Positions 1-61,562 of a DNA stretch of 64,000 nt are shown here, piece after piece (position 1 is the first letter of the stretch; each line of letters opens with the position of its first letter). Location of the stretch: NCBI RefSeq assembly GCF_018977255.1, contig NW_024704742.1, positions 57,600,001 to 57,664,000 of the forward strand. Reading direction: 5' to 3'. This stretch comes from Callorhinchus milii. Its lineage: Eukaryota. The notes below the pieces were generated by a model. That model made no database searches. It saw only the letters and a list, made by a program, of their open reading frames with translations, and was not told where the DNA came from. The position numbers and the translations under genes are program-made.

Positions 1-207
1 GTTCCTCTGTGAGATTGACCCTGTTGGGCACAACACGGTTATAAGCTCTGGAAGCTCCCATGTACAATTAGGAAACATTTTCCTGCTCAATGTTCGCAGT
101 CATGCTTGCTCATTGCAAGTCAACCTTCTCAATAGTTGAAGGATTTGTACTTCATGCATTGACACCACAGAAATCTGGGAGTACATAACAACCTGGGCTG
201 GATTTTC

Positions 208-525
208 TTTTTTGGTCTGCCAGATGTCTGACACATACAGAAGCCTTTCACCATGTTTAAGATAATACCAAAACTACTGAGACTTCCACATTTGTACAGA
301 CATTTCCATTTTTCTGTAGCGAAGTTTGCCGCTGTGAGCACTGTCTACAAAGCTCCTGCCGCTTGACCCTACCCATTAAAGCTTTGATTTAGAGGGTTAA
401 CAAGAGCAAAGTAGGAAGAATTCCAGCTTTGAGTGACTGCTCTGCTCAACCAAGTCATGTCAACAAGCCAGACTGACTGGTCCAACATCAACAGTGCTTT
501 AAAAGTACTGTGGACCTGCCAGGTT
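208..525 (-). mobile_element. Family C copy, diverged and internally deleted
   Basis: 3' end TTTTTGGTCTGCCAGATGTCTGACACAT and the ACCCTACCCATTA block match the 7750-8260 copy. Confidence 0.7.
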
Positions 526-856
526 GGCTTATCCGCAGGACTTGGAGAAGGAGAACAATCACTGGGGGGCATGGCATCTGTAACATCCATCTGAACAGGA
601 AGTTTGGAACTTGGTATAAATCCTAATCCAAAATACAGCATTCACAACAACAGAGAGCACCCTCAGCATTGCTGTCATGCAGCTTGAATCCATAACCTTC
701 TGAATTAGAGACTGAGGCCTGGAAAACAGCATTGCTTTGTATCCAGTTGTTCCTCCATTATCTCTTTTAACTTTCCACACATAACACAAAAATACCTTGT
801 GATCCAATGCAAATATGGAGTTTAACTACAAAATATATATATTTTATGTATCTTGG

Positions 857-7080: not shown

Positions 7081-7747
7081 CTCTTCTTTCCCTCTGAAAT
7101 CCTTGAGCAGCTCTCAATTGCAGCTCACGGTAAGCAGCTAATGCAACAGGGAAACAAGATCTCTCGTATCTTTGCCTTCCACAGCCGGCGTAATCCCCCA
7201 AAGAGTCCCAGGCATTTCTTGAATGCAGCTTTCCAATGCTGGAAGTCTGTCTCTGTGCTCCTTTCCCAGCATTCCCCGACTCACATACAGACAATAGAGG
7301 TGTGACCAATCGCACTGTGATCTTCTGGGCAAATGTTTGAAAACTCCTTTCCAATAATGGCCATTGACACGCCAGTGGGCGGCCTGCTGAACGTGTTGGC
7401 TTGGCAACGATGCCTGGCTGCTCCCTAACTTGAGTCTTGCCACTTTGTTCTGACATGCAGATTAGAAAATTAAAAATTAATGGCAGTTTTGCATAAAGGG
7501 TGGAAAAAAAACAGACAAGACTTAAATTCTGTTGCTCTCTCTTCCAGCATTTTCTAGACAAGCATGCAGACTGTCTGTCCCAGTTTAAGAATACTTGATA
7601 TTAATCATTAAAAAGACAGCTGTTGAGCAAGGCCAAATGGAGCTCCAGCATTATGTTAGTTCCTTTGATCAACAAATAATGCATGATTGCCACATGCATC
7701 TGCATTTTTCCAAACACAACTTTCACAGAAAATATATGTGATTCATT

Positions 7748-8385
7748 TTTTTTGGGGTCAGCTGGGTGTCTGACACATGGGAAAACCCATCACCGTGCTT
7801 AAAAGTATCCAAACCAAGCTGAGACTTCCATCCAAACCAAACTGAGAATTCACACCTACACATAGAAATTCCAGGGATAGATTGTTGGAATGGAATGTGC
7901 ACTCTCTCCCCGGAGGGATGCATCCTGCTTACCTAATTTCTGAAAGTATTAGGCACAGGTTGGCAAGAGCCAAAACTTGGAAACCCCAGAATGAGTGTTG
8001 CGGCACTGCTGGAGGCTAACTAGCTAAAACCGAATACCTTGCCATTGATAGCACTGTCTGGCAAGCTTTTCCCGCTGCTTGTCCAGCTAAGACCACCCTA
8101 CCCATTAGGCCTTTGGGTTGCAGGATTATCTGGAGCTGAGTGGGAAGCCTCACTGTCACCAGTGACTGGCTGCCCTCCCAAGTCCTGCCAATGAGCCAGG
8201 CTGGCTGTGTTGTCGTCAGCAATGCCCTGGAATACTGCGGACCCACCTGGATCCGGAACCGGTCTTAGAAGACCACCATAGAGGGCCGGCTCAATTCCAA
8301 CATTTTGTTGTCAAACATGTCACAGTGGAGCCAGTTCAGCTCCAAGGAGACCCCACTTACTACCCACCTTCTCCAAGGAGGATGT
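7748..8385 (-). mobile_element. Family C copy
   Basis: Colinear with 27057-27672; A-tail at 7747-7753. Confidence 0.85.
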
Positions 8386-9016
8386 GATTCAAGTGTGATA
8401 AAAATTGGTTTGGGGAATTATTACTGTTCCTTAATCATGTTCTCCTGCAATGCCAATATACAAACAGAAAAATAGCATTGGTTGAAATCTCTCCAGCGAA
8501 GAGCACTCATATGTGACATATCAGCATTTGCTAGAAATAGGAGGATTAGTCAGTGGTGAGGAGTTAGAGATAATGATGCTTACTCTGGGGATTCCCCCAA
8601 TCTCCATCTAGTGGGTGAAACTGGAGAGCATTGAGATAAGACATGATAGGAGTACAGGATTCGAGCAATCTCTTCTGAATTGCACTGTGTAGGGCAGAAG
8701 CAAACAATGGAAGAAACCAAAGGAGAGTCAGTTTGAGAAATGTGTATCCCCAAACTGCATTGAATCTCCATCTGGGCAACAATAATAATAACAACAACAA
8801 CAAAATTACATTTATAGAGCGCCTTTCAAGTCGGGAGGACGTCCCAAGGCGCCGGCATAATACTTGCATTTGATGTACCACATTATTAGGTCACCTAAAT
8901 ATCTCGAAGCACTTTACAGGATTTATCATAAATGGCATCCAATTTGTGTCCTATAGTAATAAAAAATTATAATCAGAATTCTTATCATGTAGTGTCTACA
9001 AACACTATGAAGTGAA

Positions 9017-10435: not shown

Positions 10436-11010
10436 ACTTAATGCAGTTAACTGCAATCCAGTTGTGACATAGGAAACTCACAAAATATTGGTGCAGTCTC
10501 AATAGGTTGTTTGCCAAGCATTAGAGAAGCTCAGGGAAACCGAGAGAAAAGGAAAAACAGGAGGCAACGACAAATTGAGGCCAATAAGATCAGAAACAAA
10601 ACAAGAGCTTTCAGAACACAGAAGGTTCAGAAATAATAAGGTAAAACAGCGAGTGAGGAAATTTGCAGATCAGCACTGCAAAAAAGACAGAAAAAAATAT
10701 AGCAGCTAGAACAGCAGAAACTTCAATTAGACAAAAATAGAGAAAGAACAGGGTGACTTCAAGGAATCATAACTGAAACAGACATGCACACAACAAACTC
10801 AAGGTCAGCAGAACCCCTGGGAAGCAGAATGATGGCAATTTTTCAACTTGGAGGTGCAGAATTAAGCTACTTTGGAGAATTATGTGGAGTTAACTTGATG
10901 GGACCTTTTAATGCTGCCACAAATACTATTGTTATACAAAAGCACCAAATAGAACTTTTGTTTGCCTGGCATGGAATGCATGTGTACACTGATAGACAAA
11001 AAAAACTTGT

Positions 11011-11389
11011 AATAATAATAATTCTTGCATTTGATATAGCGCTTTATCACATCTTCTAAGCATTGCAAAGCGCTTCACAGAATATATTGTGAAGTGAATT
11101 GACCGTATATTTTGTGGGCAAAACATAGCAGCCAATTGCATACAGCAATGTCTCACAAACAGTTATGGATTGATTGACGAAGTTATTATTATATTTTATT
11201 TTTTTGAATGGATTATTATCCCTGGAAAAGCGATCCGCCAATCGACTAACAACCGGGATCCTACTTACTGCTAGGTAAACAGAGGTGTGTGGAGTAAGGA
11301 AATCTGCCAAACATTTCGCCCTGCTGGAATCAAATTCAAGTCTCTCGCTTGCGAGTTGAGTGCTTTAACCGTTGAGCTACAGGACTCCA
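11011..11389 (-). mobile_element. tRNA-Ala SINE, long subfamily
   Basis: Carries the extra ~60-bp block TCTGTTTACCTAGCAGTAAG...GGCGGATCGCTTTTC. Confidence 0.9.
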
Positions 11390-11589
11390 CTAATGTTCAA
11401 ATACTTTGTGGAATGCTGCAGTGTACTGACCTTACACTTGATTCATCTTTTGGGAGACAAGCAGAAACTTTCCTTACAATATTAGAGAGAATTGGGAATC
11501 TGCAAATGATGGCTTTACCAATTCACTTTAATACCCAGAAGAAATGTTGGCTCAGTAAAACCATGTTTAGCTGGAGAAAATCTGTAACT

Positions 11590-13524: not shown

Positions 13525-14702
13525 TTTGTTCAACCCCCGACTCTCCTTTCATGTGGACTCTGACCAAGTCTGCTTTCTGAATCTCCACAGCATTGCCTGC
13601 CTCTGCCACTACCTCGCCCCAATGCAGCAAAAACCTTTAACCATACCTTTGCCAGTTCCTTCTCCTATGCTTTTGCCATCTCTAGATTTTTCCCAAACTG
13701 GCTTTCCCAGCTCCATCCCCCACAAAGTTATTATTCAGAGACCATACAGAACTCCGCAGCTGTGGAGTTCTGTCGCCATGCAAGTGAGAGGACCTGGGTT
13801 CTATTCCCGGCAGGGCGAAACATTGGCCAAGTTTCCTTACCCCACACTCCTCTGTTTACCTAGCAGCAATAGGAACCCGGGTGTTAGTCGATTGGCGGAT
13901 CACTTTTCTGGGGGTAATAATTCCTTAAAAAAAATAATAATAAATTGGACACTTCAATCCACGACTGTTTGTGGGATACTGCTGTGCGCAATTGGTTGCA
14001 GCATTTCGCCCACAAAATATACAGTCAATTCACTTTACAGTATATTTTCTGAGGTGCTTTGAGATGTCTCGAAGACGTGATAAGGCGCTATATCAAATGC
14101 AAGGATTATTATTTATATTAGTATAAAGCTCTGCTGACCCATTTTCAGGCTCTATGAGCCCAATTCTCCCCCCTCCCCCACCATCAACCCATGACTATCC
14201 TTTCTCCCCCACATCTGTGCCATGATCCACTCTGCCTTCCCCATCTCCGCAACATTGCCCAACTCTGCCACTGCCTCACCCCTCTGGCCGTCAAAACCCT
14301 CATACATGCCTTCATTGCAACCAGGCCAACGCCCTACTCGTCAGCCTTCCCAACTCCTCCCTCAAAAAGCTGCAGATCATCCAGAAGTCTGCAGCTCGTG
14401 TCCTCTCTCGCACCAGGTTCTATAACCCCATGACACCCACGCTTGTCCGGCTCCACTGGCTTTCCATCCCTCAGAAGATCGAGTTCAAAATTCTTGTCCT
14501 CACCTTCAAGGCCCTTCATGGCCTTGCTCTCTCCTACTTCTCCGACCTGCTAACCACCGAATCAACCCGTCTGCTCCCTCCGCTCAGCAGCCTCCAGCCT
14601 GCTCCATGTCCCCACCGTCGGTGGTCAAGCCTTCAGCGTCTCTGCCCCTCCCTCGGGTTCTAATCCCTGACTGTTCACCGCCTTGGGATGTCCCCAATGT
14701 TA
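13525..14702 (+). mobile_element. L2 3' fragments interrupted by a SINE
   Basis: HLRNIAQL and RLHWLSIPQKIEFKILVLTFKALHGLA motifs; tail remnant at 14675-14702. Confidence 0.8.
13762..14112 (+). mobile_element. tRNA-Ala SINE, long subfamily (head partly deleted)
   Basis: Same body and tail as the other long copies. Confidence 0.9.
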
Positions 14703-15025: not shown

Positions 15026-15414
15026 AAAGGTGCTTTACAAATGTAATTCTGTATTGTACTGTATCCTCACTGACTACCCAATCCTCAGCAAATCAACAGC
15101 AAAATTCTCAACCCCACCCTCATATGCATCCTGGGTTTTGAACCACCCTATTCCTGCAATCTCCAGCCATCCCCCGCACTCCATCCGTTTCGCCAATTCC
15201 AGACTGCTTCATGCCTCCCTCCTCCCTCCCTCCTGCCCACTTGTCCCACCCTCAGCAGATGAACCTTCTACCACATTGACCCCTTCCTCTTGAAATCTCT
15301 AAGGGAATACGATTGTCCTTCCCTCCTCTCTCTACTTTTACATCCTGCCTGGGATCTACTATTCATGCTCTCTATCAGGCCTGTTCATACATTCTTATCT
15401 GTTGGTCTTTTGTT

Positions 15415-15620
15415 TTTTACTCAACTGTGTGTCTGACACATAAGGACGCCCTTCACTGTCCTTAACAGTATCCAAACCAGACAGGTTGCCACATATTTAA
15501 TCCTTATACCTATGGACATCCATTTCTCCATGACATGAATGGAACACATACTTTCTCCCAGAGGGCCACAGCCTGCTACCTATTTCCAGAGATTATTAGG
15601 CACTGGTTGGCAAGCGCCCA
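15415..15620 (-). mobile_element. Family C 3' fragment
   Basis: GTGTCTGACACAT...ATTAGGCACTGGTTGGCAAG. Confidence 0.75.
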
Positions 15621-15674
15621 TGTTACCACAGTTTTATTTTATGCAAAAAAACGTTTTGGTCTCTGAATCCGAAG

Positions 15675-25774: not shown

Positions 25775-26303
25775 TATTCCTAGTAGTAGTCCTGTTGTGT
25801 TAAAACTAGATGGAAGATCAAATTGAGTCATTCCTCTAAAGTGATCTCATTAGTCTTGTGCCTGAGCCAAGCAGGTCCACGCAGACTAAAGCACTGATGA
25901 TTCTTGGACCAAACGTAGCTCATTACTGGGCTTGGAGGATGAGATCAGTCACTGAGTACAAGGATGCTTCTCACTCAGTTCCCATTATCTCTCAAAGCCC
26001 AAATCTTAATGGGTAGCAGTTTTTCTAACTGGGCAAACATCAAGAAGCTTCACAATGATAAACTGTGCATTGTATCTAGTTACTCGCCCACAGCACACTG
26101 TGGGGTCATCAAGTCTTTTACCATCCTGCTCCTTATCTCTCTGAAGAATAGGTAAGCAGGATGTGTCTCTGGGGAGAGAGTGCATACTCCATAAATGGAC
26201 AAATGGAAACCATACACGTGGAACTCTGAGTTGTTCGTTTTTGAGCTTCGTAAGCACAGCTTTGGGATTTCACTTGTATCAGACACTTGACTGACCAAAA
26301 AAA
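25775..26303 (+). mobile_element. Family C copy, diverged
   Basis: CCTGAGCCAAG...TAGGTAAGCAGGATG...TCAGACACTTGACTGACCAAAAAAA. Confidence 0.75.
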
Positions 26304-26399
26304 TACTTTATGTGTAAAGAAATACTTTCCTGGTGTCTGTGTTCAAATGGCCTTTCATAACCCTAAACCTCCTGCTACTTGCAATGATCATTTGGGGTT

Positions 26400-27672
26400 C
26401 ACATTCAGAATTCATAGTGTTAACCTGGTTCAGTTTGAAGCACCATCGCCTCTGGATGTTGGTTCAACTCCCACATCGCTCATGGTCTAACAGCTGGTGC
26501 TGAGTAAACCTGGTACCTGACATTGGATTTGGACTCAAGAACATCAAAGTGGCTGGCACATTCCAAGCTTTCCTGTACAAGTCCTCCCACCATGCTGAAG
26601 GAAGATGCCCACCTGGAATCCACTTTCACTGGCCTGCAGAGAGGCAGGCAGCTGCTGCTTAAACTGCGCACTTCCAATGGGAAGTCAATCACTCAATTGG
26701 AAGGGATGTGTGCCCGAGCTGCGATCAGGAAGATAATAATAATAATAATCCTTGCATTTGATACAGCACCCTATCATGTCTTCGAGACATCTCAAAGCGC
26801 TTCACAAATATACTGTAAGGTTAATTGACTGTATATTTTGTGGGCGAAACACGGCAGCCAATAGTGCACAGCAGCGTCCACAAAGTTGTGGATTGAAGTG
26901 ATCCATTTATTATTATTATTTTTTTTGAAGGTAGTAATGCTCTCATGCATTTCACGCTGAGATGTTTTCCCACTGCGAAGGTCGCCAGGGAATTCCTATA
27001 CCTACCATCCACCTTGGAGCCTGTGCTTGTTGAATGTCGAATGACCAGCTAGTAACTATCTTTCTTGGGGTGGGGGGAGGTAAGCAGGGTCTCCTTTGAG
27101 CTGAACTAGCTCCAAGGTGACATGCTTGGCAACGGAATGTCAGAATCGAGCCAGCCCTCTGTGGTGGACTTGGTAGTCCGGTTCCTGAGCCAGGTGGGTC
27201 CGCAGTATTCCAGAGCACTGCTGATGTCAGCACAGCCAGCCTGGTCAGCGGCAGGACCTGGAAGGGCAGACCAGTCACCGGAGGCAGGGAGTCATCCCAC
27301 TGAGCTCCTGTTAACTCTGCAAGCTAAAGCCCTAACAGGTAGGGTGGTCCTAGCTGCACAAGCAGCAGGAGAGCTTGCCGGCTGGTGATATCCACGGCAA
27401 CCTATATGGGTTTAGCTGGTTAGACTCCAGCAGTACCCCAACGCACACTCTGGGGTCTCCAAGCCTTGGCTCTTACCAACCTGCGCCTAACACTTTCCGG
27501 AATTAGGTAAGCAGGATGAGTCCCTCCAGGGAGAGTGCGGATTCCATTCCAACAATCTGTCTCTGGAACTTCCAAGTGCAGGTGGGATGCATGGAATTCT
27601 GGTTTAGGTTGGCTACTCTTAAGCATGGTGATGGATTTCCCCACGTGTCAGACACCCGCTGACCCCGAAAAA
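26400..27672 (+). mobile_element. Unassigned LINE 3' end ('family C'): ORF2 C-terminus with CCHC knuckle, ~500-bp 3' UTR, A-tail
   Basis: Removing the SINE at 26733-26930 (GAAG duplicated) gives GRDVCPSCDQEGSNALMHFTLRC, preceded by RQLLLKLRT in another frame. Ends GTCAGACACCCGCTGACCCCGAAAAA. Confidence 0.7.
26733..26930 (-). mobile_element. SINE 3' half inserted in family C ORF remnant
   Basis: (ATT)n tail and body; GAAG on both sides. Confidence 0.9.
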
Positions 27673-29504
27673 TGTTTTAGCAATCCAGTGCAATGTTTGG
27701 GGTGTCGTATATTGTCAGGTGCTGCCTTTCAGATGAGATTTTAAACTGAGGTTCTAGCTGCCTGTTCATAAGGACTAAATTCTATCATTTGACACTATTC
27801 AAAAAGAGAAGGAATTGTCCAATGATGTCCTGCCTAAAAATCCTTTGGATAATAACTGACGATTCACTTTACGGCTGTTTGTGAAACACTGCTGCGCACA
27901 AATTAGCTGCTACATTTCCCCTGCAAATAGTCATGTACTTCAGAAACACTGTGAAGGACTTTTAAGACATTCTTGATGCTATAGGCATTATTTTAATTGC
28001 AACAAATATTATTTTAATTATTTTGCGTCTTATATACCTCTATAAGGTACTCTACTGAGGAGTCTTTTTTCAAGGCAAGCTAACTTACCTGATTATACCT
28101 TATAGCTCATTGCTCAAACTCTCATCTTTTGTATCTTCTTTGTGGTGCCTCCAGCACCTCGGCGTGCTCTTAGTGCTACAATGACCAGAACTGTAAACAA
28201 TACTCCAAGCTTGGCCTGACCATGACATTTTACAACTTAAGTACAACTTCCTGGGGATCTGAACTGAACTGACTTGGCAATGCAGTGTAGCCAAAAAGAG
28301 TTGGCCTACTTTACTGCACCTGATTGCTTACAATTCACTTCAGGCCCAATATAAATCCAGCTCCAGATGGCTTGAACCCACTGTGTTTATTTTGAGGGTT
28401 CTAAATTTCAATCAGCAGTAGCATACAAACATCATTTAACTGAAGGATGGTTGTTCAGGAGTAACTCCCTTCCCTTGTCAAATACTGTCACAAGATCTTC
28501 AATGTCTACCTAAATATGCAAATTATTGCTGGGTCTTTCAGGCAGTTCAAATCCTGTTGTAGCTCAAGGCTGTTGATGCTGTGATCCCACCCTATTTACT
28601 GTCAGACTAAATCCAAAACTTGGAAAACAGTTTCGCAACAACTACAAATATTCCAACTTCTACGGGTATTGGTTGTTCCCAAAAGATATACCAAATTGAG
28701 TATATTAGCATGCAAATGAAACATCCTGTTGGAATACAAAAGTCACCACAAGTCACTTGTCTGGTGCCTCCCACTGCCTTGAGACATGTAAAGAGATCAA
28801 AAGTTAACCTTTGTGTGAGTTAACGTTTGCAGTCCCACCATTATAACAGTGCATTTCGCTTGTGAACTACTTGAGAATGGGTCTAAATAGAATTTGTTCT
28901 CAAGTAGTCCAAAGCTCCAGATGGCTGGGACCTGCTGTGTTTATTTTGAGGAGCTAAATTCCAAACAGCAGCTGCAAACAAACACCCATTTAACTGGAGG
29001 ATTGATAGCCAAGAAATACTCTTTTCAAACAGTGTCATAGGATCTTTTATGTTCACCTGAACAGGCAGACGTTTCATCTAAAAAGGATTGCACTTCCCAA
29101 CAATGTCGTTCTCCCATTTCATTCATAAATAAATAAGTTAGTTAATTAATTGGTCACTCACTCTATGATTGTTTGTGTAACACTGCTGTGCGCAACTGGC
29201 TTCCGAGTTTCTCCCACAAAATACACACTCACTCACTACACTTTACAGTGTATTCTGTGAAGCGGTTTAAAACGTCTCAATGACATGATAAGGTGCTGTA
29301 TCAAATGCAAGGATTATTATCACTGTACTGGATTGTTAGCTTGAACTATGAGGTCAAGCCCTGACATAGAACTCAGAGGCGAGATTGTTAGAAACTGAGC
29401 CAGGTTGACACGTCTATATGGTCAATTTTAAGTTGTGATTCACAGCTTTTCCAAAATCTGGCCACATGATTTTTCGTAAACTGCATTTCTAGCTTGTCCG
29501 AGTG

Positions 29505-29885: not shown

Positions 29886-32599
29886 GGCCAGCACAGCAGA
29901 CATGTAGTTTGTAGTGAAGGTTGGCGTTGCTGATAGAGGTGAGGTGAACACTCACCTTGTGAGGCTGCGTAACCACCTCACATAATATAATAACAATCCT
30001 TGCATTTGATATAGCACCTGATCACATCATTGAGACGTTTCAAAGCGGTTCGCACAATATACTGCAAAGTGAATTAACAAATTTTGTGAGCGACACGCGG
30101 CAGACAATGGCGCACAGCTGTGTCCCACAAACAGGATATATTCTCCTGTTGGTAAACTACCACGTTACAGTTCTGTGCTTATGAAACCTCTAAGTATCTT
30201 ATTGTATTGGGGTTTAATTCAGTCCACGTCTGTAAAGTACTGTAGATTTCTGGTGCAGCTGTCGGGATACATACTTATGTTGAGCTCCTGAGACTGGTGT
30301 ATTGTGCTAAGGATAACACATGGTAGATTGTTTTCTGTACACTGAAAATCTATTTTGCACATTATTATTTTCACTTCTGGTGCCTCAATAGACCCAAGTT
30401 AGCTCTATAGAATGCAACCTACTCAGAGACAGAAACCCAGCCCACTGTGCGAGACCACAATATTTATACTTCCCTCAGCTCTGGTCAAGATTATGAATGG
30501 ACTGATATTAAATTACTATCCTGATGCATGGAATTTTTTCCTGCAAAACAAATCACAGATTTCACGAGAATTCCCATCTGAATTTAAATCTGATGGGAAC
30601 TTTTACTCCTAACTACAAACAAAATAAATAGACTCAAAATGTACTGAAAATGTGCAACAAAATGTAAATTAGCAGCTGTACTTTAAAGTGGTCCAATCAT
30701 TGTGGTACTTGTACTCAAGCTATAAAGATCGGCTGCGGCAAAAACAATGGTCAGTAAACACCCAAGGCCGTGGCATGAACACAGATCAGCCTGTGTTTAT
30801 TCATTTAACTTTATTCTTAGCATAAACATTCAAACAGTTAAATAAATAGCTTGCATTGTAAGTTCTATCTTATTCTTGTAAAATCCAAGCTATCGTTTTT
30901 GGGGAGCTTTGTATAGGAAAAGCCTTGCCCAAAAAAGTATGTCTATTTAAGTTAACTGAAAGAAAATAGAAACAATTTATTTTGTTTGAATTTGCTCACA
31001 ACTCCAAAGCATTTTGAATGACATTTTACTAATTTAATGCATGGAAGTACTTTGAGCTCTGAACTGCACAATGTGAGTGACTGCTTAGACACAGTGTTGC
31101 CCATGGAAACAAGAATTTGTCCTTTTAATCCTTCAGCAGAAGAGTATGAAAGCATGGGAACTTCACAGCACGTCTTTTCCAGGCTTAGAATTCGCTACCA
31201 TAAGCAACAGGATTTTTGCACAGTTGTGTATCATAAATAATTCTACATCTTCACAAGGTTGCCATTTAATCAATTGGCATGAATTGCTTAATTCATAATT
31301 CATATTAAGCTTAAACAATGGTCTTGCACTTGACTGTGAGCCTGCACAATATATATTTATAATCACAGGGAAGGCATTACAGTTCTGACAAAATCTATTT
31401 TCTATTGCACAAGAGGGTGCATTTAGTACTCCGAAATTCTTTGGAATCAGGAATGGCATTTGGGATTCTGAAGGATTTCAGAATTCCATATGGCTGTGCT
31501 CAGTGTCAAAGTGCACTGAATTTACCACAGTGGCTATACATTTCAAAGATTGCAACCTGTTCTAAGTGCGTAGAGATGTCCTATTTGGGATGAAGTAATA
31601 TTCTTTCAGGTTTACAATGACTCATCCACGATGACTAAACTGTTATCCCAAAATAGTTAGAATCCTGTTCAATTACATTACTTATGACACTTATCTCGAC
31701 CTTGCTCAAAGCTTATCATTTTATCTAGAGGCAAAGTTATTTGTCAGACTGAGGTTCACTCGTATGGTTCTTGCCAGGTCTGTATTAACTTTAGGTTATC
31801 CTGCTCCTTGCAGTGAATGCACTGGGGTGTGAGGCCTATTCTGCCCAATTTGGTCAATGCACATAAACACTGTAAAAAAAAGTAAAATAATTTTTAATTA
31901 TGAATGGGATTACAAATGCTAAATTAAATTATACTTTAAAAATTGCATCACATGTATTTTTAAGCATGCAGGAACAAATTTACTAAACTTACTAAATTAC
32001 TGACTGAATGGAGCAAAATCACTACATGAAGCTAAATAAATTCTATTTTTAATACAATGAACAATGTCTTTGAAATTGTTCAAAAACTATTGCTTAACAT
32101 TGGTACATAATAATCATCACCACTATTGAAACATTGATTTGGCCTTTTAGATTTTTTGTTTTACAATATAAAACATTTATTTTAAATTGTAGCTTCAGCA
32201 AAGGTCGCCTCCCACATTTTCCTACAAATACACAGTTGCTTGACATTGCCACAATTACCTTTGAGAAGTTTTGATGTTAAAGACACTATATCAAATGCGA
32301 GCATTAAATAAATAAATTTTAGGAGTTTTTAAATGTAATGCTGCTGCACAGTTCCTGGTTATTTGCATTACATTCTTAAAAAGAAAGATTTTTTTAAACA
32401 GAAAGATCAACGCCAGCATGTAACGATTATCCATCGCCAGCATATTTTATATAACTTTCCCATCTATTTGCTGCTAGGAGCCTTCAAAGAAGCTATGAAT
32501 CAATATGGAGTTGGCAGTACCACAATTTGAAGCAATTTTGCTCAGTCCAGTTATATTCAAGGTTCACAATAGTAAACTTCTTAATTTTAGATGGATAAA

Positions 32600-32830
32600 C
32601 TTCAGCAGTATCTTAACCCTTTGGGGTTCCAAGCCTTGACTCTTGCTAACCTGGGCCTCATACTTTTCAAGATGAGGTGAGTGGGTACATCCCTTCTCGG
32701 AGTGTTAAGTACACTCTAGACAAAGGGAAGTTTTCATGCACATGTGGAATTCTGAATAGTTTGGTTTCGATATTCCTAAGCATGATACTCTTAAGCATTT
32801 TTGCATGTGTCAAGCACCCAATGACCAACC
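32600..32830 (+). mobile_element. Family C 3' fragment
   Basis: CCAAGCCTTGACTCTTGCTAACCTG...GTGTCAAGCACCCAATGACC. Confidence 0.7.
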
Positions 32831-39600: not shown

Positions 39601-39974
39601 CTTAGCAGATCTCAATTTAAGCTCTCCGAGACTTCATCCGGCATGAAGTACGCTATATAAATGCAAGTTGTTGTAGTTACTGAAACATTTCTAAAAGGGC
39701 AGTGAAATAAGGGGGAGACTATCTTTCAGTGATTGGTGCTTCATCATGTCTTAGTTGGTCCATGTACTGTCTAATGTTGAAATGAGACATTTGGACTGGA
39801 TTTGTGCCAACAATTATTAATTTCCTTAACCTTAAGGCATGTGGTCTTAAAAATTTAAATTTAAAGTCGTGCAGCATTTTGGAAAACAATACAAAATGAA
39901 TCTTACTATTTTCTGAAGTTCTGAAAAAAACTTTGAAATAAAAATGAATTGAATAATTTTCCAAAATTCTGTCA

Positions 39975-40340
39975 TAATAATAATTTTTGCATTTGATATA
40001 GTGCCTTTTCACGTCTTCGAGACGTCTCAAAGAGCTTCACAGAATAGACTGTAAAGTGAATTGACTGTATATTTTGTGGGTGAAACGTGGCAGCCAATTA
40101 TGCACAGCAGTGTCCCACAAACAGTTGTGGATTGAAGTGACCAATTCTTTTTAAAAACGGAATTATTACCCCTAGAAAAGCGATCCGCCAATCAAATAAC
40201 AACCAGGTTCCTACTTACTGCTAGGTAAACAGAAGTGTGTGGAGTAAGGAAACTTGCCCAACGTTTCGAACTGCTGGGAATCGAACCCAGGTTCCTCGCT
40301 TGCAAGGCGAGCGCTCTAACCACTGAGCTACATGACTCCA
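39975..40340 (-). mobile_element. tRNA-Ala SINE, long subfamily, full length
   Basis: A/B boxes, extra block and tail present. Confidence 0.93.
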
Positions 40341-40349
40341 CCTTAAAAC

Positions 40350-41375
40350 AACCACAACAACAACTTGCACTTATACAGCGTCCTCCATGCAGGTTAGCTT
40401 CCCAGAGTGCTTAACAGTGGCGGAGCCTGACTCCGAGCCGGGGGAAGGAAGGTGACTGTATGCACGGTCGAAAGGAAGGTTTCTAGGCGGGACTTGAAAA
40501 AGGGGAGAGAGGGGGCAAGGCGAAGGGATTGAGGGAGAGTGTTCCACAGTTTCGGGACGTAGTGGCTGAAAGCAGAGTGCGCGGGCAAGCAGGAAGCCGG
40601 TGCCAGTCGAGCGGAGGCAACTGGTGGTAGGTCGGAGAGGTAGGGAGGTGCCAAGGGTTTGAACACAAGTGTGAGGATCTTGAAGTCGATCCGTTTGGTG
40701 ATGGGGAGCCAGTGGAGCCTGGCCAGAACTGGTGAAATGTGGGTAATGAGTTTGGTCCGGGTAAGTATACAGTCAGCAATGTTCGGAATAAGCTGGATTT
40801 TTTGAAAGTGGAGCTGGGGAACCAGCAAGGAATACGTTTGAATAATACAGGTGGGAGTTGACAAACGCATGCACGAGGGTTTCGGCTACATTTGGGATTA
40901 GATATGAATGGAGACAGGTGGGGGAAGGCGGAGGGAGCGAGTAGGATGGTTGGGGCTTAGGAGGTCACAGAGGTAGGGGGGAGCAAGACCATGGAGAGCT
41001 TTGAAGGTGAGGACCAGGATCTTGAACTGAATCCTCTGTGTGATGGGAAGTCAGTGGAGTCGGGTGAGGCTGGGGGTGATAGGGTCACGGAGCCTGGTGC
41101 GGGAGAGGACATGGGCTGCAGAGTTCTGGATGATCTGCAGCCTATGGAGAGAGGATATGGGGAGGCCGACAAGCAATGAGTTTGTATAGTCAAGCCTCGA
41201 TGCAATGAAAGCATGTATGAGGATTTTGGCGGCCTGCGGTGTGAGACAGTGGTGGAACTGGGCGACATTTGGAGGCGGGGGAAGGCAGAGCGGGTCATGG
41301 CACAGATGTGGGGTAGAAAGGATATTTGAGGGTCAAACAAGACACCAAGGTTCTGGACTGGCTTAGCAAGATGCA
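40350..41375 (-). mobile_element. Two adjacent L2 3' fragments
   Basis: RLHWLPITKRIDFKIL (40350-40950) and QNLGVLFDPQISF (40957-41375). Confidence 0.88.
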
Positions 41376-43060: not shown

Positions 43061-43884
43061 ATTCTTCACTGGACTATCATATGAGGCTATGAGCTAAACA
43101 GAACTATAATTTGCTTTTCAATCCTAAAGCACCTAACTTAGTCTGCTTTTCTAATAAACCTCCCAAATGGGGCCTGAATTCACAAGTTTCTGACCCAGAG
43201 ATAAAATTGTTACCAACTAAGTGAAGCTGACACCTCAAGGCACTCAGAGAGATTAAAGCACTGAAAAATGATGGTTTAGAAAAAACAAATATTTGCTCCA
43301 CATTGGATTGCATTCCTTTGAGTGTCTGGTTGAACCTGTGCATGGTAACAATTTGGAGATGATTTAGAATAGAATAATGAGTATCAGTTTCAAACAGTCA
43401 TATTCTATCAAGTTCCAGTTTACTAACTTGTTTAAGTAAACCAGGCACATGCAAATGGAAGAGGACCCAGGAATACAGAAGCCTTGAGGAGGATCACGTT
43501 CTAATCAACCCATGTTTGTATGCAACACAAAGTTTGGAGGTGTGATGGATTGTGCAGACTGAAAACATTGTTGCCAAGATCCCATCTGCCTGTTCAATTA
43601 CATTCAGACGGGACATAGAAACAGGAGTAGGCCATTCAGCTCCCAGAACCTGTTCCATCATTCTATTAGATCATGGTTGATCTGTACCTCAACTTCCCTG
43701 CCTTTTCTCCATATCCCTTGATACCTTACCTAACAAAAATCTATCAAATTATAGCAGTTTTCTAACTTGCTAAAGTAAGGTAGACACACATGAATGGAAG
43801 AGGACCGAGGAATACAGTAGCCATGAAGAGATATTGATAGATGTTCAAATCATTTGGACGTGAAACATCCAAAGATCCTGTTTT

Positions 43885-44142
43885 CAATGGCCAGCAGTAT
43901 AGCTTTAGTTGGCTAAGGTTCAATAGTACCCAAATAGACTCTAGAGGTCCCCAAATCTTGTCTCTTGCTAACCTGTGCTTAATACTCTAAGGAATGAGAT
44001 AAGCAGTGTTGCTCCTCTCTGGGGAGTGAGCACGCATTTCATTCCAGACGTGGAAATTCCCATGTGTAGATGGCATAAATGGACCTCTCAGTCTGGTTTG
44101 GATACTCTCAAGTATGGTAATGGGTTTCCGCATGTGTCCACA
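43885..44142 (+). mobile_element. Family C 3' fragment
   Basis: CTCTTGCTAACCTGTGCTTAATAC...GGGTTTCCGCATGTGTC. Confidence 0.75.
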
Positions 44143-44661
44143 TCCATCATTCTAATGATGGAACCTCACAATAAGGGCAAAATAGGCCAATTGCTGATCC
44201 CCTGTGTAGAGTATTTCCACTGTAAATTAACCTGGCAGCCTTCCAACACTGTTTATCACTTTCTGAACAGGAATGATACAAATATCATTTTGTAAAATTC
44301 AGGCTCAATTTCAAACTTGGAACCTTTTTCAAATGAAGCATGAATTTAAGAATTTTTCTGCAAAACAATTTCTATACAATCTTAAATTTTAAGATATCGG
44401 AGAAGGTTAAGATAATAAGAACTGGGGAGGGGGCTCAGTTTTGCTTATGATAAATTATAAAAAATGAGGCAGGTACATGCTAGTAAACAATGCAACTAAT
44501 ATTCCGAAATATGCAGTCTTCATTTTGCTCGGTAGACTAATATAACTTTTGCCACAGATTCAACTTCAGCAAATCCTTGTGACAATAATAACCTTGTTGA
44601 ATGCTTGGCATCTTGTAAAAATCAAATTCTCAAAAAACAATTACTGTATATTTTCTTTAAG

Positions 44662-52419: not shown

Positions 52420-54590
52420 AACAACAACAAAAAAATTACATTTGATTAGCGCCTTTCACGTCGACAGGACGTTCCAAGGCGTTGGACAATCAGAGTTTCG
52501 GAACCGGGATTGGGGAAGGTGGAAGGCAGTGGGGGAAGCACAGTGATTGTGTTCAAATCCATTCACTCCCTGGCACCTCCCTACTTCTTCGACCTCCTCA
52601 CTCCCCAGTCCACCACCCGGCGCCTCTGCTCGACTGGCATGGCCTCCTGCTCGTGCCTCGCACTCTCCGCTCCACCATCGGTGGACATGCTTTCAGCCAC
52701 TACGCCCCAAAACTCTGGAACACACTCCCTCAATTCCCCGCCTTGCCCCCTCTCTCCCCTCTTTCAAGTCCCGCCTGAAAAATGTCCTGTTCGATCGTGC
52801 TTATGGCCACCTCCTCCCTTTCCCTGGCTCGGAGTCAGGCTCCACCACTGTTAAGTGCTCTGAGATGCTACCCTGTATGGAGGACGCTATATAAGTGCAA
52901 GTTGTTGTTGATCGAATGCACAGTTGAAGAGGAGGGTCTTGAGATGGGTCTTGATGGAGGCAAGGGAGGGGGCGACGCGGAGGGACTGTGGGATAGGGTT
53001 CCAGAAGGTGGGGGCAGAGTGGCAGAAGGCCCTCGGTCTTGTTGACATTCAATTCAAGAAAGTTAGCTCTCATCCAGGACTTGATGTCTTGCAGACATTC
53101 TGTCAGGACAGCAGTGATCCTGGAGTCATGGGTGAAGGCAGAGAGGTAGAGTTGGGTTATCTTCTGCATACATGTGGAAGTTGATCCCATGTTGGCGGAT
53201 GAGGGAGCTCTGGTCACCGATGGACAGAATGTCATTTATTACTTTGACCAGGGTTGTTTCTGTGCTGTGGGTGGCATGGAAATCCAATTGGAGAGGTGTG
53301 TGAACGGAGTGGCGGGAGAGGACGGAGCGAAGCTGGAAAGCAACAACTCATTCCAGGACTTTGGAGAGGAAAGGGAGGTTGGAGATGGTGCGGTAGTTTG
53401 AGAGCAGAGATGGGTCTAGGGAAGGTTTTTTAAGGTTAGGAGTGATGACGGCGGTTTTTAATGAGATGGGAACGGTGCCAGTGAACAGGGAGAGGTTCAT
53501 GATGTCTGTGAGTAGAGGGGCAAGGAGGTGGAGCTGGAAGATAAGGAAAGGGGTAGGGATGGGGTCGAGGGAGCAGGTGATGGGTTTCATGCAGATTATA
53601 GTGGTGGTGAGAGAGGAGGGGAAGACAGGTTCAAAGATGTGGAGGGAGGGATGGGTGGGGCCGGGGTGGGAGGGGGACATGGTGAGGAGCTAACAGATAG
53701 AATGGCAGAGGCAGCTGGTCGGATCCCCTAAACTTTGAATTCGAGGAAGTCCAGCATTTCCTCGCCTTTGGCATTGGAAGTGAGGATGGGCGAGGCGTGA
53801 GAGGGTGGGCGGAGGAGACAGATGTTGATGGAGAAGAGGAGCCTGGTGTTGTCCTTGGCCTTCAAGATTGTCTTGGAGTAGAACGATGATTTAGTGATGG
53901 TGAGGGCGGAGTGGTAGGATTTGATAAGGTCCAGCCAGATCTGCCGATGGACCGTTAAATTCGATTTAAGCCAGCTGCGTTAAGCAGAATGCATCTGTGC
54001 TTTAAGGGAGTGGAGGAGGCTGGTGTACCATGGTGACGTGTGTGTTTAGGAGACGGTTCGGGAAGAGAGGGGAGCAAAGGAATCGAGAGTGGAGGAGAGG
54101 GAGCTGTGGAGAAGAGTGACTGAGGAGGATAGGTCATTGCGGGAGGAAGCCCAGAGGGGAACGAGTTCAGATGACTTCAAGGCACCCGAGAGGGAGGGGT
54201 GTGGAGAGATTTTTTTTCAAGGGTGGTAGGAGATGGAGGTGGATTGGGTGGCGGTGGGGAGAGGGATTGATGAGTTGAGGGAGACGAATTGATGGTCTGA
54301 GATCACTTTATAGATGATGGTGAGGTGCGAGACAGTGAGACTCCGATTGATCACCAGGTCGAGGGGGTGACCGCGAACGTAGGCGGTGGAATGGATGTGG
54401 AGAGAGAGGTTGAGGAAGGAGATAAGGGAGGAGAAGTCAGCAGAGGTAGAGCAGGAGAGGGTGAAGTGAAAGTTGAAGTCGCCTAGGATGAGGAGGCGTT
54501 TGGAGCAGAAGAGGGAAGATAGAAGGCTGGAGATGTTGGGGATTACGGTGGGGCAGGGCAAGCCAAAGTTGTAACAGGGAGAGTGGTACA
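52420..54590 (-). mobile_element. Older L2 LINE, internally deleted (EN and RT remnants)
   Basis: [28 protein letters not shown] and [14 protein letters not shown] remnants; L2 tail at 52420-52480. Confidence 0.9.
52545..52910 (+). mobile_element. L2 3' fragment (second tail type) nested in the older L2
   Basis: AFSHYAPKLWNTLP and FKSRLK motifs; tail ending AAGTGCAAGTTGTTGTTG; host L2 resumes after it. Confidence 0.85.
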
Positions 54591-54666
54591 AACTGGACAA
54601 ACAGCGGGAAGCTCGCGAGACAATACTTTTAATGGCAAGCTATACTGTTTTAGCTGGTTAGACTCT

Positions 54667-57514
54667 ACAACAACAACAACAAGATTCCATTTATTGAGCG
54701 CCTTTCACGTCGGGAGGACGTCCCAAGGCGCTGTACAGTTGGGTCAGGACCCGAGCAGGGGGGAAACGGTCAGGGTGAGGGGAGGGAAGGGAGGGAGCGA
54801 GGAGGGGGTAGAGAGTCGAGAGGGGAGCTGAAGGTTCGGTCAAAGAGAAAGGTCTTGAGACCGGCCTTGAAGGAGGAAAGGGAGGAGGCGGCGAAGGCAC
54901 TGGGGGATGGAGTTCCAGAGCCTCGGGGCTGAGAGGCTGAAGGCCCGGCCACCGATGGTAGGGCGGTTGGGGCGGGGGATGTGGAGCAGACCGGAGCCAG
55001 AGGAACGGAGGGTACGGGCAGGTAGGTAGGGGGATAGTAGGTCGGAGAGGTAGGAGGGAGCGAGGCCGTGAATGGCCTTGTAGGTGAGGATGAGGATCTT
55101 GAATTCGATCCTCTGGGGGATGGGGAGCCAGTGGAGGCGAGCGAGGGTGGGAGTGATGTGGTCCTGGTGCGGGACAGTACACGAGCTGCAGAGTTCTGAA
55201 TGACCTGCAGCTTGTGGAGGGAGGTGCCGGGAAGGCCGGCGAGGAGAGAGTTCCCATAGTCCAGCCTTGAGGTGATAAAGGCGTGGACCAGAGTTTCAGC
55301 AGCGTGAGGGGTGAGGTAGTGCCGTAGTCTGGCGACATTCCGGAGGTGATGGAAGGCGGTGCCAGTTGTGGCGCGGATATGAGAGAGAAAGGACAGCTCA
55401 GGGTCGAACAGAACCCGAGGTTCCTGACCGGCTTTGAGAGGTGGAGAGTGCAGCCTTGGATGCTGATGCTGTCAGCGCCTGAGGTGCGGAGGCGCTGACG
55501 TGAGCCAATCAGGAGGGCCTCAGTTTTGCGCACGTTGAGCTGGAGAAAGTTGTCTCTCGTCCAGGACTCGATGTCGGACAGGCAGCTGTCAGGACATCGG
55601 TGGTCGTGGAGTTGAGGGTAGAGGAGGAAAGGTAGAGTTGGGTGTCATCCGCATACATGTGGAAGTTAACCCCATGTCTGCGGATGATGTCACCAAAGGG
55701 GAGCATATAGAGGGTGAAGAGGAGGGGACCGAGGACAGAGCCTTGAGGGACACCGCACGAGACAGTGCGGAGGGTGGAGGAAAAACCATTTGTGGAGACA
55801 AAGTGAAGACGTTGGGAGAGGTACGACCTAAACCACTCAAGGACAGGGCCTTGAAGGTTTAGGTGGGAGGACAAGCGGTGGAGGAGGATAGCGTGGTCGA
55901 CCGTATCGAATGCTGCCGATAGGTCGAGGAGGACGAGGAGGCAGAGGGAGCCCTGGTCACAGATGGTCAGGATGTCATTGGTGACCTTGACCAGGGCAGT
56001 TTCTGTGCTATGGGCAGCACGGAAACCCGACTGAAGGGGTTCGAATAATGAATGGGTGGAGAGGAAAGAGCGCAGCTGGGAGGCGACAACTCGTTCCAGG
56101 ACCTTGGACAGGAAGGGGAGGTTGGAGATGGGCCGGTAGCTTGATAGCTGCGACGCATCAAGGGAGGGTTTTTTTAAGGTGGGAGTGATGGTGGCAGTTT
56201 TTAAGGGAATGGGAATAGAGCCAGAGGAGAGGGACAGGTTGACGATGTCTGTGATATGTGGGGCAAGGAGGTGGAGCTGGGAGATAAGGAGTGGAGTGGG
56301 GATGGGGTCAAGGGAGCAGGTGGTGGGTTTCAGGGATAGGATGAGTTTGGTGACAGAGGGTGGGGAAACGGGTACGAAGGTGTGTAGGGGAGGATGGGTA
56401 GGAGTCGGAGTGTGGGAGGGAAGGGGTGGGTGGTGGGTGGATGTTGGAGGGGAAGTGACCGCGGAGCGAATTCCCTTGATCTTGGATTCAAGGAAATCCA
56501 GCATCTCCTCGCAGTGAAGGTTGGAGGAGATGACCTGCGCGGGGTGGCGGGGGGGACGGAGGAGTTGGGATGTGGTAGAGAACAGTAGCCTGGGGTTGTC
56601 CTTCGCCTCCAGGATTATCCTGGAGTAGAAGGACGATTTGGCCGAGGCTAGAGTGGAGCGGTAGATTTTGAGGAGGTCCAGCCAGATTTGTCGGTGGACC
56701 GTTAGGCCAGATTTGACCCAGGTGCGTTCAGCGGCCCGCACCTGGCTCTTCAGTGAGCGGAGGTGGGTGGTGAACCAGGGGGAGGAGCGAGAGTAGGAGA
56801 CAGTACGGGAGGTGATAGGGGCAAGAGTGTCAAGTGTGGAGGAGAGGGTGTTGTGGAGGAGGGTGAGAGCAGAAGAGGGGTTGGTGAGGGTTGAGGGCCA
56901 GCGGGAGAGGAGTTCAGAGGACTCCAAGGCAGAGGTTAGGGATTGAGGGGGTAACTTCTTCCAGGGGCGGTAGAAGATGGTGGTGGGTCTGGTGGAGGTG
57001 GGGAGTGGGGTGGAGGTGGTGAAGGAGATGAAGCAGTGGTCGGAGACGGCCTTGTCGGTGATGGTGACATCCGAGACACTGAGGCCCCGGGTGATCACCA
57101 AGTCGAGTGGGTGGCCGTGACTGTGAGTGGGGGAGTTGATGTGGAGGGAGAGGTTGAGTGAGGAGAGCAGGGAAGAGAAATTTGAGGAGATTGAGCAGGA
57201 GGGGGTGAAGTGCGGGTTAAAGTCGCCCAGGATGATGAGGCGATCAGAGCAGAGGCAGAGAGATGTGAGAAGTGTTGAGATATCAGAGATAAAGGTGGGA
57301 GAGGTTTTAGGGGGCCGGTAGAGGAGGAGGATTTTAAGTGAGAGGAAGGAGGGGTGGGAGAGGGTGAGGTGCTCAAAAGAGGGGAAAGAACCAGAGGAGT
57401 AGGGGGATAGAGCAAGTGGTGTCCTTGAGATAAGGGCAACACCACCGCCACGGCGGTTGGGGTGAGGGATGTTGTGGGAGGTGTAGCCGGGTGGTGTGGC
57501 CTCCGTGAGGGAGT
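54667..57514 (-). mobile_element. Young 5'-truncated L2-clade LINE (APE endonuclease + RT + 3' UTR), a few frameshifts
   Basis: Open frame from 57509 to ~55585 with EN motifs ([27 protein letters not shown]) and RT motifs ([46 protein letters not shown]). (TTG)n tail, TSD ACTCT (54662-54666 / 57515-57519), CpGs retained. Confidence 0.95.
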
Positions 57515-57759
57515 ACTCTGCAGTACATCAACACACATTCGAGGATCCCAAGTCTTGGCTCTTGTCAACCTGTTCCTAACACATTCTGGAATTAGGTATG
57601 CAAGATGTGTCCCTCTGGGAGTGAGTATACATTACAGACACAGGGAAATTTCCATGTGTAGATGGCATGCATATATGAAACTCTCAGTCTGGTTTGGGTA
57701 CTCATAAGCATGGGGATGGGATTTTTCTGTGTCAAACACCCGGCTGACCAAAAAAAAAG
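57515..57759 (+). mobile_element. Family C 3' part; its 5' part (54592-54666) is separated by the young L2
   Basis: Joining across the TSD restores TAGCTGGTTAGACTCT-GCAGTAC as in 27413-27436. Ends GCTGACC followed by an A run. Confidence 0.85.
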
Positions 57760-59339
57760 TAGTCATGGAGTTGTGTGTGAGTACTAGATAGACTAGGAAA
57801 TGGTACCTGAAAGTCGGGCGCAAAGCATTATACAATATGTAAATGGGCGATGTAGTTTACAGCCAAAACATAATTTTCACCCGGAAATATATACGGTTTC
57901 CACTTAGGCTGAACTGTAAGTTCAGCTTTACAAATTTGATCCCTAGTTCACTTACCTTTTGCCATTCTTTATTTGTAAAAAATAAAACACGTCCTACAGT
58001 GCTTTCTAATATGATAGGATTACCATCATATACTGCATGACCTAAATCACTACAAATACTTCAACAAGGAATGCGGGACCAAAAGATTATCCTTTGCTGA
58101 ACGCTGTTGAGCCATAAGTAAAATGAGTTCCAGCAGTCTCCGCTTAGTCCCCAACAAACCCAGCCACAGCATAAAGCTGTTCCCCAATTGGAGGCTTCAG
58201 CTCAAAAATCATATTGTGAGTGTACAGTGAATGATAATCTCACCTGTTCCAGATTTCACACTTCTATGTCGGATACTAGCCTAAAATTTATTTAAAAAGT
58301 AAACGTTTCCAAAATATTCCACTGAATTAAACCAAGAACATTTATATAGTGCCATTCACTGTCTCGGAGCACTGTACAGTGGCAGGATTGGACTCCGAGC
58401 AAGGGAGAAAGGGGAAGGAGGAGTGACCATAGGAGCAATCAAAAAGGTTGATTTTTGGTGGGATTTTATTTGTTTCAGTAACATTATCCCACCCAATATT
58501 AAAACGTGCAAACTTCCATGGGGGCAGAACAAATCTCAATGAATGAAAAACAATTTTTACTCATGTCAGAAATTTGTCACTTGTACTAAAAGCATATTTT
58601 GATAAAATAAGCATAAGGTGGAGCCAAGTACTATGCAATGGAAGACAAAACTGTTACTTGTTCATACTTTTTTTAAAAATCACACAGTACAAAAAAAATC
58701 CTGCTGAGGACTAAAACTCGGTGAAGCATTTGTGAAGATGCCATGTGCTAAATCCTTTCACAATGCTAGGAGGAGACGGAGTATCCTTAATCTGATACTG
58801 ATTAAAATCCTGGCATTCATTCAAGTAATCGGGACATTAATTTTCAATGCACTGGATGGTAACTAAGTATTAGCTTAAAAGTATTTGAAATACTCTTTTC
58901 TACAATAAGTTGAAGGGAACATAATTTTCTACACCAGCTTCATTACGTGAAGCTGCTGGAAATATAGGACTGACTGGTGATATTCTCCATTTATTTGCAG
59001 CTATTGATCTACTTTTGTACTGACTTCAGACATGCAAAGCTGCTTTATCTGTGCTAATGATTTAGTTTGCCATTTTCCACGTCCTTGTACTAATTATTCG
59101 AGGAATGCAAATCTGTGCTTCACTGATACATTCTTTACTTTGATCTTGGACTATGGGAACAAACAGTTTTAGTATCCTTATCACATGGTCCAAATCTAAA
59201 ACAAATAATTCACAAAAACAATCAGCAACAACAACGTAATAAGGCACAATATCAAATGCAAGGATTATTAGTATGTATGGCTCCACGTGTTCTGGCATTC
59301 AAGTACCTCACCCGATAGCCTTAATTTACATTTGCTGCT

Positions 59340-59869: not shown

Positions 59870-60232
59870 TAGATCTTCTTCATTCCTACCTCTTCTTGTG
59901 ATCTTGCAAATATGTTGACACACAGCAATTTCCAAAGCAAGCGTGCTGCTTTCTGCTACTCTTAGAGAGTCGCCCCAAACCCCTGGAACTCACTCCCTCC
60001 CTTTCTCAACATCCTTAAACCCCACCTTAAAACCTACCTCTTCAACTGCACCTATGGTCACTCCCCTGCCTCCCTCCCATTCTCCCTTTTCACTTGCTTG
60101 GTGTCCTTGTGAAGTGCTCTGAGACGTTACCCTTCATGAAGTGCGCTTATAATCAACCCTACAAGCGAAAGCCCTAACAGTTAGGGTGGTCCTAGCTGGA
60201 CAAGCAGTGGGAATATAAATGCAAGTTGGTGT
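59870..60232 (+). mobile_element. Degenerate L2 3' end
   Basis: C-rich UTR and L2 tail, split by a 61-bp insert. Confidence 0.7.
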
Positions 60233-61562
60233 AATTGATTTACCAAACATTCAGACATCTGGGAGCCAGGCAAACTCAGCCATCATGTATTAAAACTGCC
60301 TCACAGCACAAGAACAGCAACAATGTGAAGGAACTGAATGGCATAGTGTTGCTAAGGAAACACTTCTTCGGTTGTCGCCTCATTCTCTTCCTTTCAATCT
60401 ATCTGTTGTTTGCTGGGAGTTTCTATCGATGCTAAAACTATGAATCAGAATGTAGAGTGATGTGGTGACAAGCTTTCTGCTCATTTGTTCTGTTTAAAAG
60501 CAGCCTGTGGTAGGGCAAAGATTTGAGAAGCAGAGCACGGATCCACACTTTGTTTTCTGGCATCAGTGCATGAGGGTGGGTACCGTAAAAAATTAATTGA
60601 GCAATGCAGACGGATATGCTGCTGGAAAAGCAAAAGAAAGTCTAAATTATCTTAAGTATAACCAGCATTACAAGGGATTTTGGAGAATATTACTGCTCAC
60701 CCGACATCAGCTCAGGATGTCTCGCGAGCAACAGGATTGTCTAAATCTTCTGTAATACCAGTTATGGGCAGGATAACTTACATTTTTGGAAGCTTTAAAT
60801 TTACTCTTTAAAACCTCTCCTTTAGTGAGTTTGATTGTTCAAGAGAAACAGCATTTGGAAAATGTGTCACTTGCCATTATAATGAATAGCTTTAGTTCAA
60901 AGAAAGCATCAAGGCAGACATGATACCACTGGACACCCGAGTAGTATTTTCTTGGCACAGAGATACATTATGCATCGACTCCCAGTTGTATATAGAGGAG
61001 AGTAAAGCTGGTTGAACCATGGGGAACCAGAGTGACCTCAGACAGCGGGGGGTGGAAAGAGAAAGGATTAGGAAGTAAAAGAAAAAATAGGAATTGAGAC
61101 ATTTCAATTCTCTCTCTCTCTTTCTCTTTTCTTTCTCTCTCCCCCTTTTTTCTCTTCTCTTTCTCTCTCCCTTTGCTGATATCTGATTTCCAGGAGTGAT
61201 AATCCCTTCAAAAAAATATAAAATAATATTAATGTGGTCACTCAATCTATTTGTGGGACACTGCAATGCGCAAATTGGTTGACGTGTTTCGCCCACAAAA
61301 TATACAGTCAATTCACTTTACACTATATTCTGTGAAGCGCTTTGAGACGTCTTGAAGACATGATAAGATGCAAGGATTATTATTATTTCCAGTGAACAAA
61401 TACTGTAACAATTAAAAACGATCACCACAAAGAGAAGAGGTTAAAGCTCATTAGTATATCGTAAAGAACCGAGGCAAAAACAGGCTTTAAAAAATCTCAA
61501 GAGAAGGGAAAAATGCAAACATTTATTTATTCTGCCTGAGAACTTTTACAATTTTTTTCAAA

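Follow-up and report, generated by a model that had tools for sequence, protein, structure and literature searches.

The window, the whole 64-kb stretch of Callorhinchus milii DNA analysed here, is dense in L2 pieces and in a tRNA-Ala-headed SINE, and nine loci within it resemble the segment 27058-27672 by BLAST and profile search. At one of these, which we use as the reference copy, the repeat lies directly behind a probable coding fossil into which a SINE has been inserted. The copies of the repeat and the parts of the fossil are as follows.

202-560, minus strand: diverged copy of the repeat in two pieces, with an internal deletion and an A-tail.
7748-8381 (match 7743-8383), minus strand: sister copy, 79-82% identical, with a 10-bp TSD and a 5' end at about 27061 of the reference.
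15408-15622, minus strand: 5'-truncated copy with an A-tail.
25812-26310, plus strand: A-tailed copy of greater age and divergence (about 62%), directly upstream of the knuckle region.
26508-26728, plus strand: probable C-terminal fossil of a LINE ORF2, a stop-free frame of 74 codons with RQLLLKLRTSN (26646-26678), then a frameshift and C-x2-C (26711-26722).
26729-26938, minus strand: 5'-truncated tRNA-Ala-headed SINE (CmiSINE / SINE2-1_CM type, matched by description only), delimited by alignment with nine longer copies.
26939-27055, plus strand: second half of the knuckle, with H at 26948 and C at 26963, then 28 codons and TAG TAA at 27050-27055.
27058-27672 (match to 27679), plus strand: the reference copy; the repeat is abundant, about 610 nt long and A-tailed, and most likely a LINE 3' UTR, defined by BLAST and profile search.
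32562-32827, plus strand: 5'-truncated copy that reaches the common end without an A-run.
43873-44146, plus strand: truncated copy that ends some 20 nt before the common endpoint.
54558-54668 and 57514-57760 (match 54558-54667 and 57517-57760), plus strand: one copy in two collinear halves, split by an L2.
60152-60213, plus strand: short internal fragment.

Pairwise identity among the nine loci is 0.52-0.86. Seven of them reach a common 3' endpoint, where six carry an A-run of 5-9 nt, and their 5' limits range from about 27060 to 27465. The 10-bp TSD that brackets 7748-8381 is the sole TSD of at least 10 nt among the eight copies tested (1/7 on a wider search). An earlier note on this DNA had described about nine copies with a common 3' end, several of them A-tailed, and varying 5' ends, and these points all hold. 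Since the A-tailed 3' end is common, the 5' ends vary and one 10-bp TSD is present, the sequence supports reading the repeat as a non-LTR retroposon family that is old, abundant and truncated at the 5' end; target-primed reverse transcription leaves such marks on its 5'-truncated products. The family is also present in the read contigs of all four runs, which come from two organisms. The copy at 54558-57760 is interrupted by a 2.85-kb L2 on the opposite strand that encodes an endonuclease and RT, and an 8-nt repeat with one mismatch lies at the junctions. Because this L2 splits one copy, the repeat family is older than that insertion. The copies are dead, front-truncated tails of a common mobile element, ordinary genomic debris of uncertain lineage.

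Several neighbouring features were recorded alongside. Directly after the A-tail of the reference copy lies an old, full-length SINE of a second type (27681-28024, about 63% identical to other copies), which we take to be Deu / SacSINE1-CM-like, and behind it a degraded CR1-like fragment on the minus strand (28025-28460; VRPSLEYCLQFW). Two long L2 pieces occupy 52555-57519 on the minus strand, and in the piece at 54669-57513 a long open frame survives that encodes endonuclease and RT (RVT_1, E 7e-30). Three SINE copies (10995-11400, 13755-14135 and 39960-40360) contain a block of about 60 nt that is absent from six other long copies, which indicates two SINE subfamilies. At 61029-61181, Rfam gives weak microRNA-precursor matches on both strands, far below thresholds, and the segment is probably a simple hairpin or repeat.

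The SINE in the coding fossil is bracketed by direct repeats (26729-26740 and 26927-26938) that are identical at 10 of 12 positions, and sister SINE copies bear tRNA-Ala heads. Excising 198 nt restores C(26711)-x2-C-x9-H(26948)-x4-C(26963) in a single frame, much as the earlier note had proposed. The x9 spacing is soft and junction-dependent, since the SINE model itself spans 26728-26936 and overlaps the right-hand direct repeat. RQLLLKLRT (26646-26672) stands one frameshift upstream of the cysteines. Judged by its sequence, the knuckle appears to be the genuine C-terminus of a LINE ORF2.

Alternatively, the knuckle might be a chance reading, with 26400-27057 not being LINE coding sequence. 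This would agree with the frameshift required between KLRT and the cysteines, and with the lack of Pfam, PDB or protein-database support. Pfam searches of 10, then 18 frames gave no match above cutoff for the knuckle region, and none to zf-RVT at the knuckle itself. Among PDB sequences the best E was 0.61-0.69, and metagenome and viral contigs held no protein relative of the knuckle part or of the repeat. A word-based search that covered longer proteins only, and is weak evidence, scored 0 of 16 candidates for the KLRT frame and 0 of 50 for the post-SINE frame. The ESM Atlas returned unnamed proteins and IS630 at 0.92-0.93 for the KLRT frame, which we treated as noise. Against a chance reading, the motif appeared at 1 of 49 SINE junctions when excised in the same way, despite 12 nt of slack on each side, and a C-x2-C/H-x4-C-type motif occurs twice in the six frames of the intact window. 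Moreover, dozens of differing contigs span the region: in run X1, 54 contigs have a differing letter at 26578 and 72 at 26666, and many do so in all four runs, so that 26508-26728 is itself repeated. We regard a chance origin of the knuckle as very improbable.

Coding signal was then sought in the repeat itself. Stops common to the copies occur in all six frames, and no synonymous excess was found in 18 of 18 frame-by-region tests (lowest p 0.21); the test has limited power because most of the change is neutral decay. Pfam recovered RT and endonuclease from the L2 control and from none of the copies of the repeat family, the window copies have no RNase H region, and the repeat frames gave only a below-cutoff match to Ntox24. 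The word-based search, again confined to longer proteins and weak evidence, scored 0 of 98 candidates for the open frame of the tail as aligned from two copies. The 610-nt repeat is thus probably untranslated, as judged from these sequence comparisons. In register with the knuckle, one plus frame contains 5 stops over 322 codons, where the other two plus frames contain 20 and 24. It also lacks a common stop at 27070-27340, which arises by chance in 10% of frames and in 27% of cases for any of the three. An ORF running on to 27340 in this frame was considered and is not favoured; the subfamily differences fall mostly at codon position 2 (7/13). We favour a stop of ORF2 at about 27050-27055 and hold 27340 to be less likely. 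The earlier note had named HAWQR, after the knuckle, as a further piece of shifted coding sequence alongside RQLLLKLRT. Both words are present; however, HAWQR (27121-27135) comes after an in-frame TGA common to both covering copies, and the sister reads HV*QQ, so it is probably a wrong-frame match and not ORF2.

Minus-strand coding, considered because an LEYC-like word hinted at CR1 or Vingi, was rejected because of stops common to the copies and the outcome of a HMMER search. HMMER with the minus-strand frame found eight proteins, seven of them short 'uncharacterized' C. milii models and the other an unrelated Ig-domain protein. The C. milii UniRef 'uncharacterized proteins' P0002-P0004 and P0006-P0010 are antisense readings of the repeat, and these entries are probably annotation artefacts. 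In P0008 the repeat reading follows an unrelated N-terminal part that is dynein-like by eye, and in P0006 it runs on into L2-like sequence.

Conserved RNA structure was likewise not supported. A strong fold was found in one copy only (z -6.8), with z of 0.27 and -0.49 in two others; the consensus fold has z -1.9, with compensatory change in 1/33 and 1/7 pairs. The one strong fold is a long hairpin at 432-563, a 53-bp inverted repeat that is 72% complementary, and two better-preserved copies have no strong fold.

On the reading we prefer, with a probability of about 0.55, 26470-27672 would be a single defunct copy of a non-LTR retrotransposon of the APE type, truncated at its 5' end and made up of the CCHC-bearing end of ORF2 and an untranslated tail of about 610 nt. 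Knuckle and tail share one strand, and only 3-6 nt separate the stops of the knuckle frame from the start of the repeat. Downstream of the tail come the old SINE (27681-28024) and the CR1 piece, with no remainder of the knuckle element; because these follow the tail, no 3' end other than the reference A-tail was found for the knuckle ORF. GC content, a weak indicator, is 0.50-0.52 in the knuckle part, 0.53-0.58 in its tail, 0.43-0.45 in the older copies and 0.35-0.40 in the flanks. No TSD was found around 26310-27672.

The same arrangement could also arise from two adjacent elements, a fragment of a lower-copy CCHC LINE (26470-27057) and an unrelated A-tailed repeat copy truncated at about 27060. 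Neither BLAST nor profile search found a further copy of 26400-27057 in the 64-kb window, and no window copy links 26470-27057 to the tail. Upstream flanks of the other copies match 26400-26732 in 0 of 7 cases and 26927-27057 in 1 of 7, at an uncorrected p of 0.045. The earlier note had taken the knuckle to identify the whole family as an old, abundant LINE. An old and abundant family of 5'-truncated retroposons is indeed present, but the knuckle stands beside the repeat at a single locus and would identify the family only if the two belong to one element. The family is also dense (nine loci in 64 kb), with another copy directly upstream at 25812-26310, as two elements side by side would have it.

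The read contigs bear on this junction in the same direction. In contigs compared at 80% likeness, summed depth in run X1, which is not copy number and is used qualitatively only, is 47 at 26974 versus 51,031 over 27077-27177; within the repeat it falls to about 3,000 in narrow places. Per run, 17-72 contigs have another letter at 26578-26666, 1-3 at 26974 and 98 to at least 128 at 27248-27279. Cover jumps sharply at about 27066-27075 and shows no steady increase in the 3' direction, contrary to the prediction for one family. Of about 290,870 contig pieces, 32 were listed; among these, 12 begin at 27066-27153, none of which extends further upstream, and seven of the 12 bear 20-247 unmatched letters in front, and two pairs among them look like the same locus seen in two runs. 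The change in cover and the unmatched letters favour two elements. Joints that skip the SINE were absent from the 15 listed of about 3,930, which is evidence for neither side. Nonetheless, two elements would have to share an orientation, the second would have to insert no more than 6 nt from the stop of the knuckle frame, and the older one would have to lose its 3' end; no TSD isolating 27058-27672 as an insertion of its own was found. We consider an origin from two elements possible, yet unlikely.

The position of the jump in cover brings in a further alternative. The 610-nt repeat might be a non-autonomous element whose 5' end is fixed, one that arose from the tail of the knuckle LINE and came to outnumber this parent by far. 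The TSD-bounded sister copy (7748-8381) begins at about 27061, the same place where contig cover of the reference copy drops, and three long contigs of organism B cease matching at 27075-27102 and carry 185-247 letters ahead of that point. This 5' point is, however, reached by only 2 of the 9 loci, and a truncation hot spot, or identity dipping below the 80% cut, would look alike. A small-RNA head is also absent from the 5' end of the repeat: Rfam searches of 26930-27700 and 7720-8420 gave a best E of 1.5, far under gathering scores, and ARAGORN found none. We therefore judge a fixed start improbable. Its more specific form, in which a headless fixed-start retroposon from the 3' UTR of a CCHC LINE outside the named clades would have outbred its parent in chimaeras and have no classified library entry, seems to us more doubtful still.

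Returning to the single-copy reading, ORF2 with its C-terminal CCHC knuckle would stop at about 27050-27055 and be followed by the untranslated tail of about 610 nt and poly(A). The APE and RT that we infer for this ORF2 would have acted by target-primed reverse transcription, as in established LINE biology, nicking the target and copying the RNA from its A-tail. Copying would usually halt within the tail, leaving most copies tail-only. A SINE later entered the knuckle at this locus, and an L2 entered another copy of the repeat; this order of insertion is shown by the sequence.

The family may well be known to repeat libraries already. A 2007 survey of C. milii deposited ten abundant repeat consensuses, DQ524329-DQ524339, comprising 2 SINE-like, 3 LINE-like, 4 satellite-like and 1 unknown, which were assembled from reads that each matched over 500 of 100,000 others, according to the part of the paper available (PMC1845163). 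With nine loci in 64 kb, the family may well be one of them, judging from its abundance and not from sequence, and a library entry is likely. Novelty is doubtful, since abundant C. milii repeats have been deposited and the lineage is already reported to contain fossils of RTE-X, Tx1 and Daphne. Unannotated pieces are common in the chimaera genome, where 31,098 of 105,995 TE protein fossils were missed by the RepeatMasker version used, as given in the accessible part of that report (PMC9004415). The excerpts available of four papers do not name the family (PMC3747384, PMC4350176, PMC3964593, PMC2656470), and no published name was found in the literature searched, which says little as Repbase and Dfam lie outside it. 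CmiSINE (SINE2-1_CM, SINE2-1B_CM) and SacSINE1-CM are described, in the available portion of the source, with a tRNA-Ala head and an L2-type tail (PMC5499810). The inserted SINE fits this description; these elements are interrupters and not the repeat family.

If knuckle and tail are one element, a third abundant chimaera LINE could be given its place in the non-LTR tree and the copies could be masked. Masking them would also remove spurious gene models, seven of the eight proteins being antisense readings. Placing and masking would be useful curation, not new biology, and specialists would take an interest only if the element were non-autonomous, headless and of fixed start, or if its clade were an unplaced one.

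Among known systems, the repeat resembles L1/Tx1 in its poly(A) tail, its TSD of about 10 bp and its heavy 5' truncation. The poly(A) and 10-bp TSD would point to L1/Tx1 as marks of insertion rather than through an RT comparison. The residues before the knuckle (K-L-R) are presumably not L1-like, and the 28 codons after it are, we assume, short for L1. A CCHC finger is present in the L1 ORF2, as stated in the available part of the source (PMC5753468). This likeness requires the knuckle and the tail to be parts of one element.

The residues ahead of the knuckle would instead point to RTEX. The series L-x-K-L-R, C-x2-C and H-F-x-L-x-C resembles, we believe, the ends of RTEX ORF2 proteins, compared by eye and not scored against a reference. 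Unlike RTEX, the family has an A-run as its tail and not a 3' microsatellite, and a 3' UTR of about 610 nt would be long for RTEX. The reference for the tail comprises six green-algal RTEX families only, none of which ends in (A)n (0/6; PMC3747384, Table 3, from the excerpt available). As far as the available parts of the sources go, L4, L5 and ALINE of human belong to RTEX and RTEX relics are known in vertebrates (PMC5753468); one human RTE-X fossil dates to the gnathostome ancestor, Tx1 fossils of gnathostome age are listed, and the chimaera has six Daphne fragments (PMC9004415).
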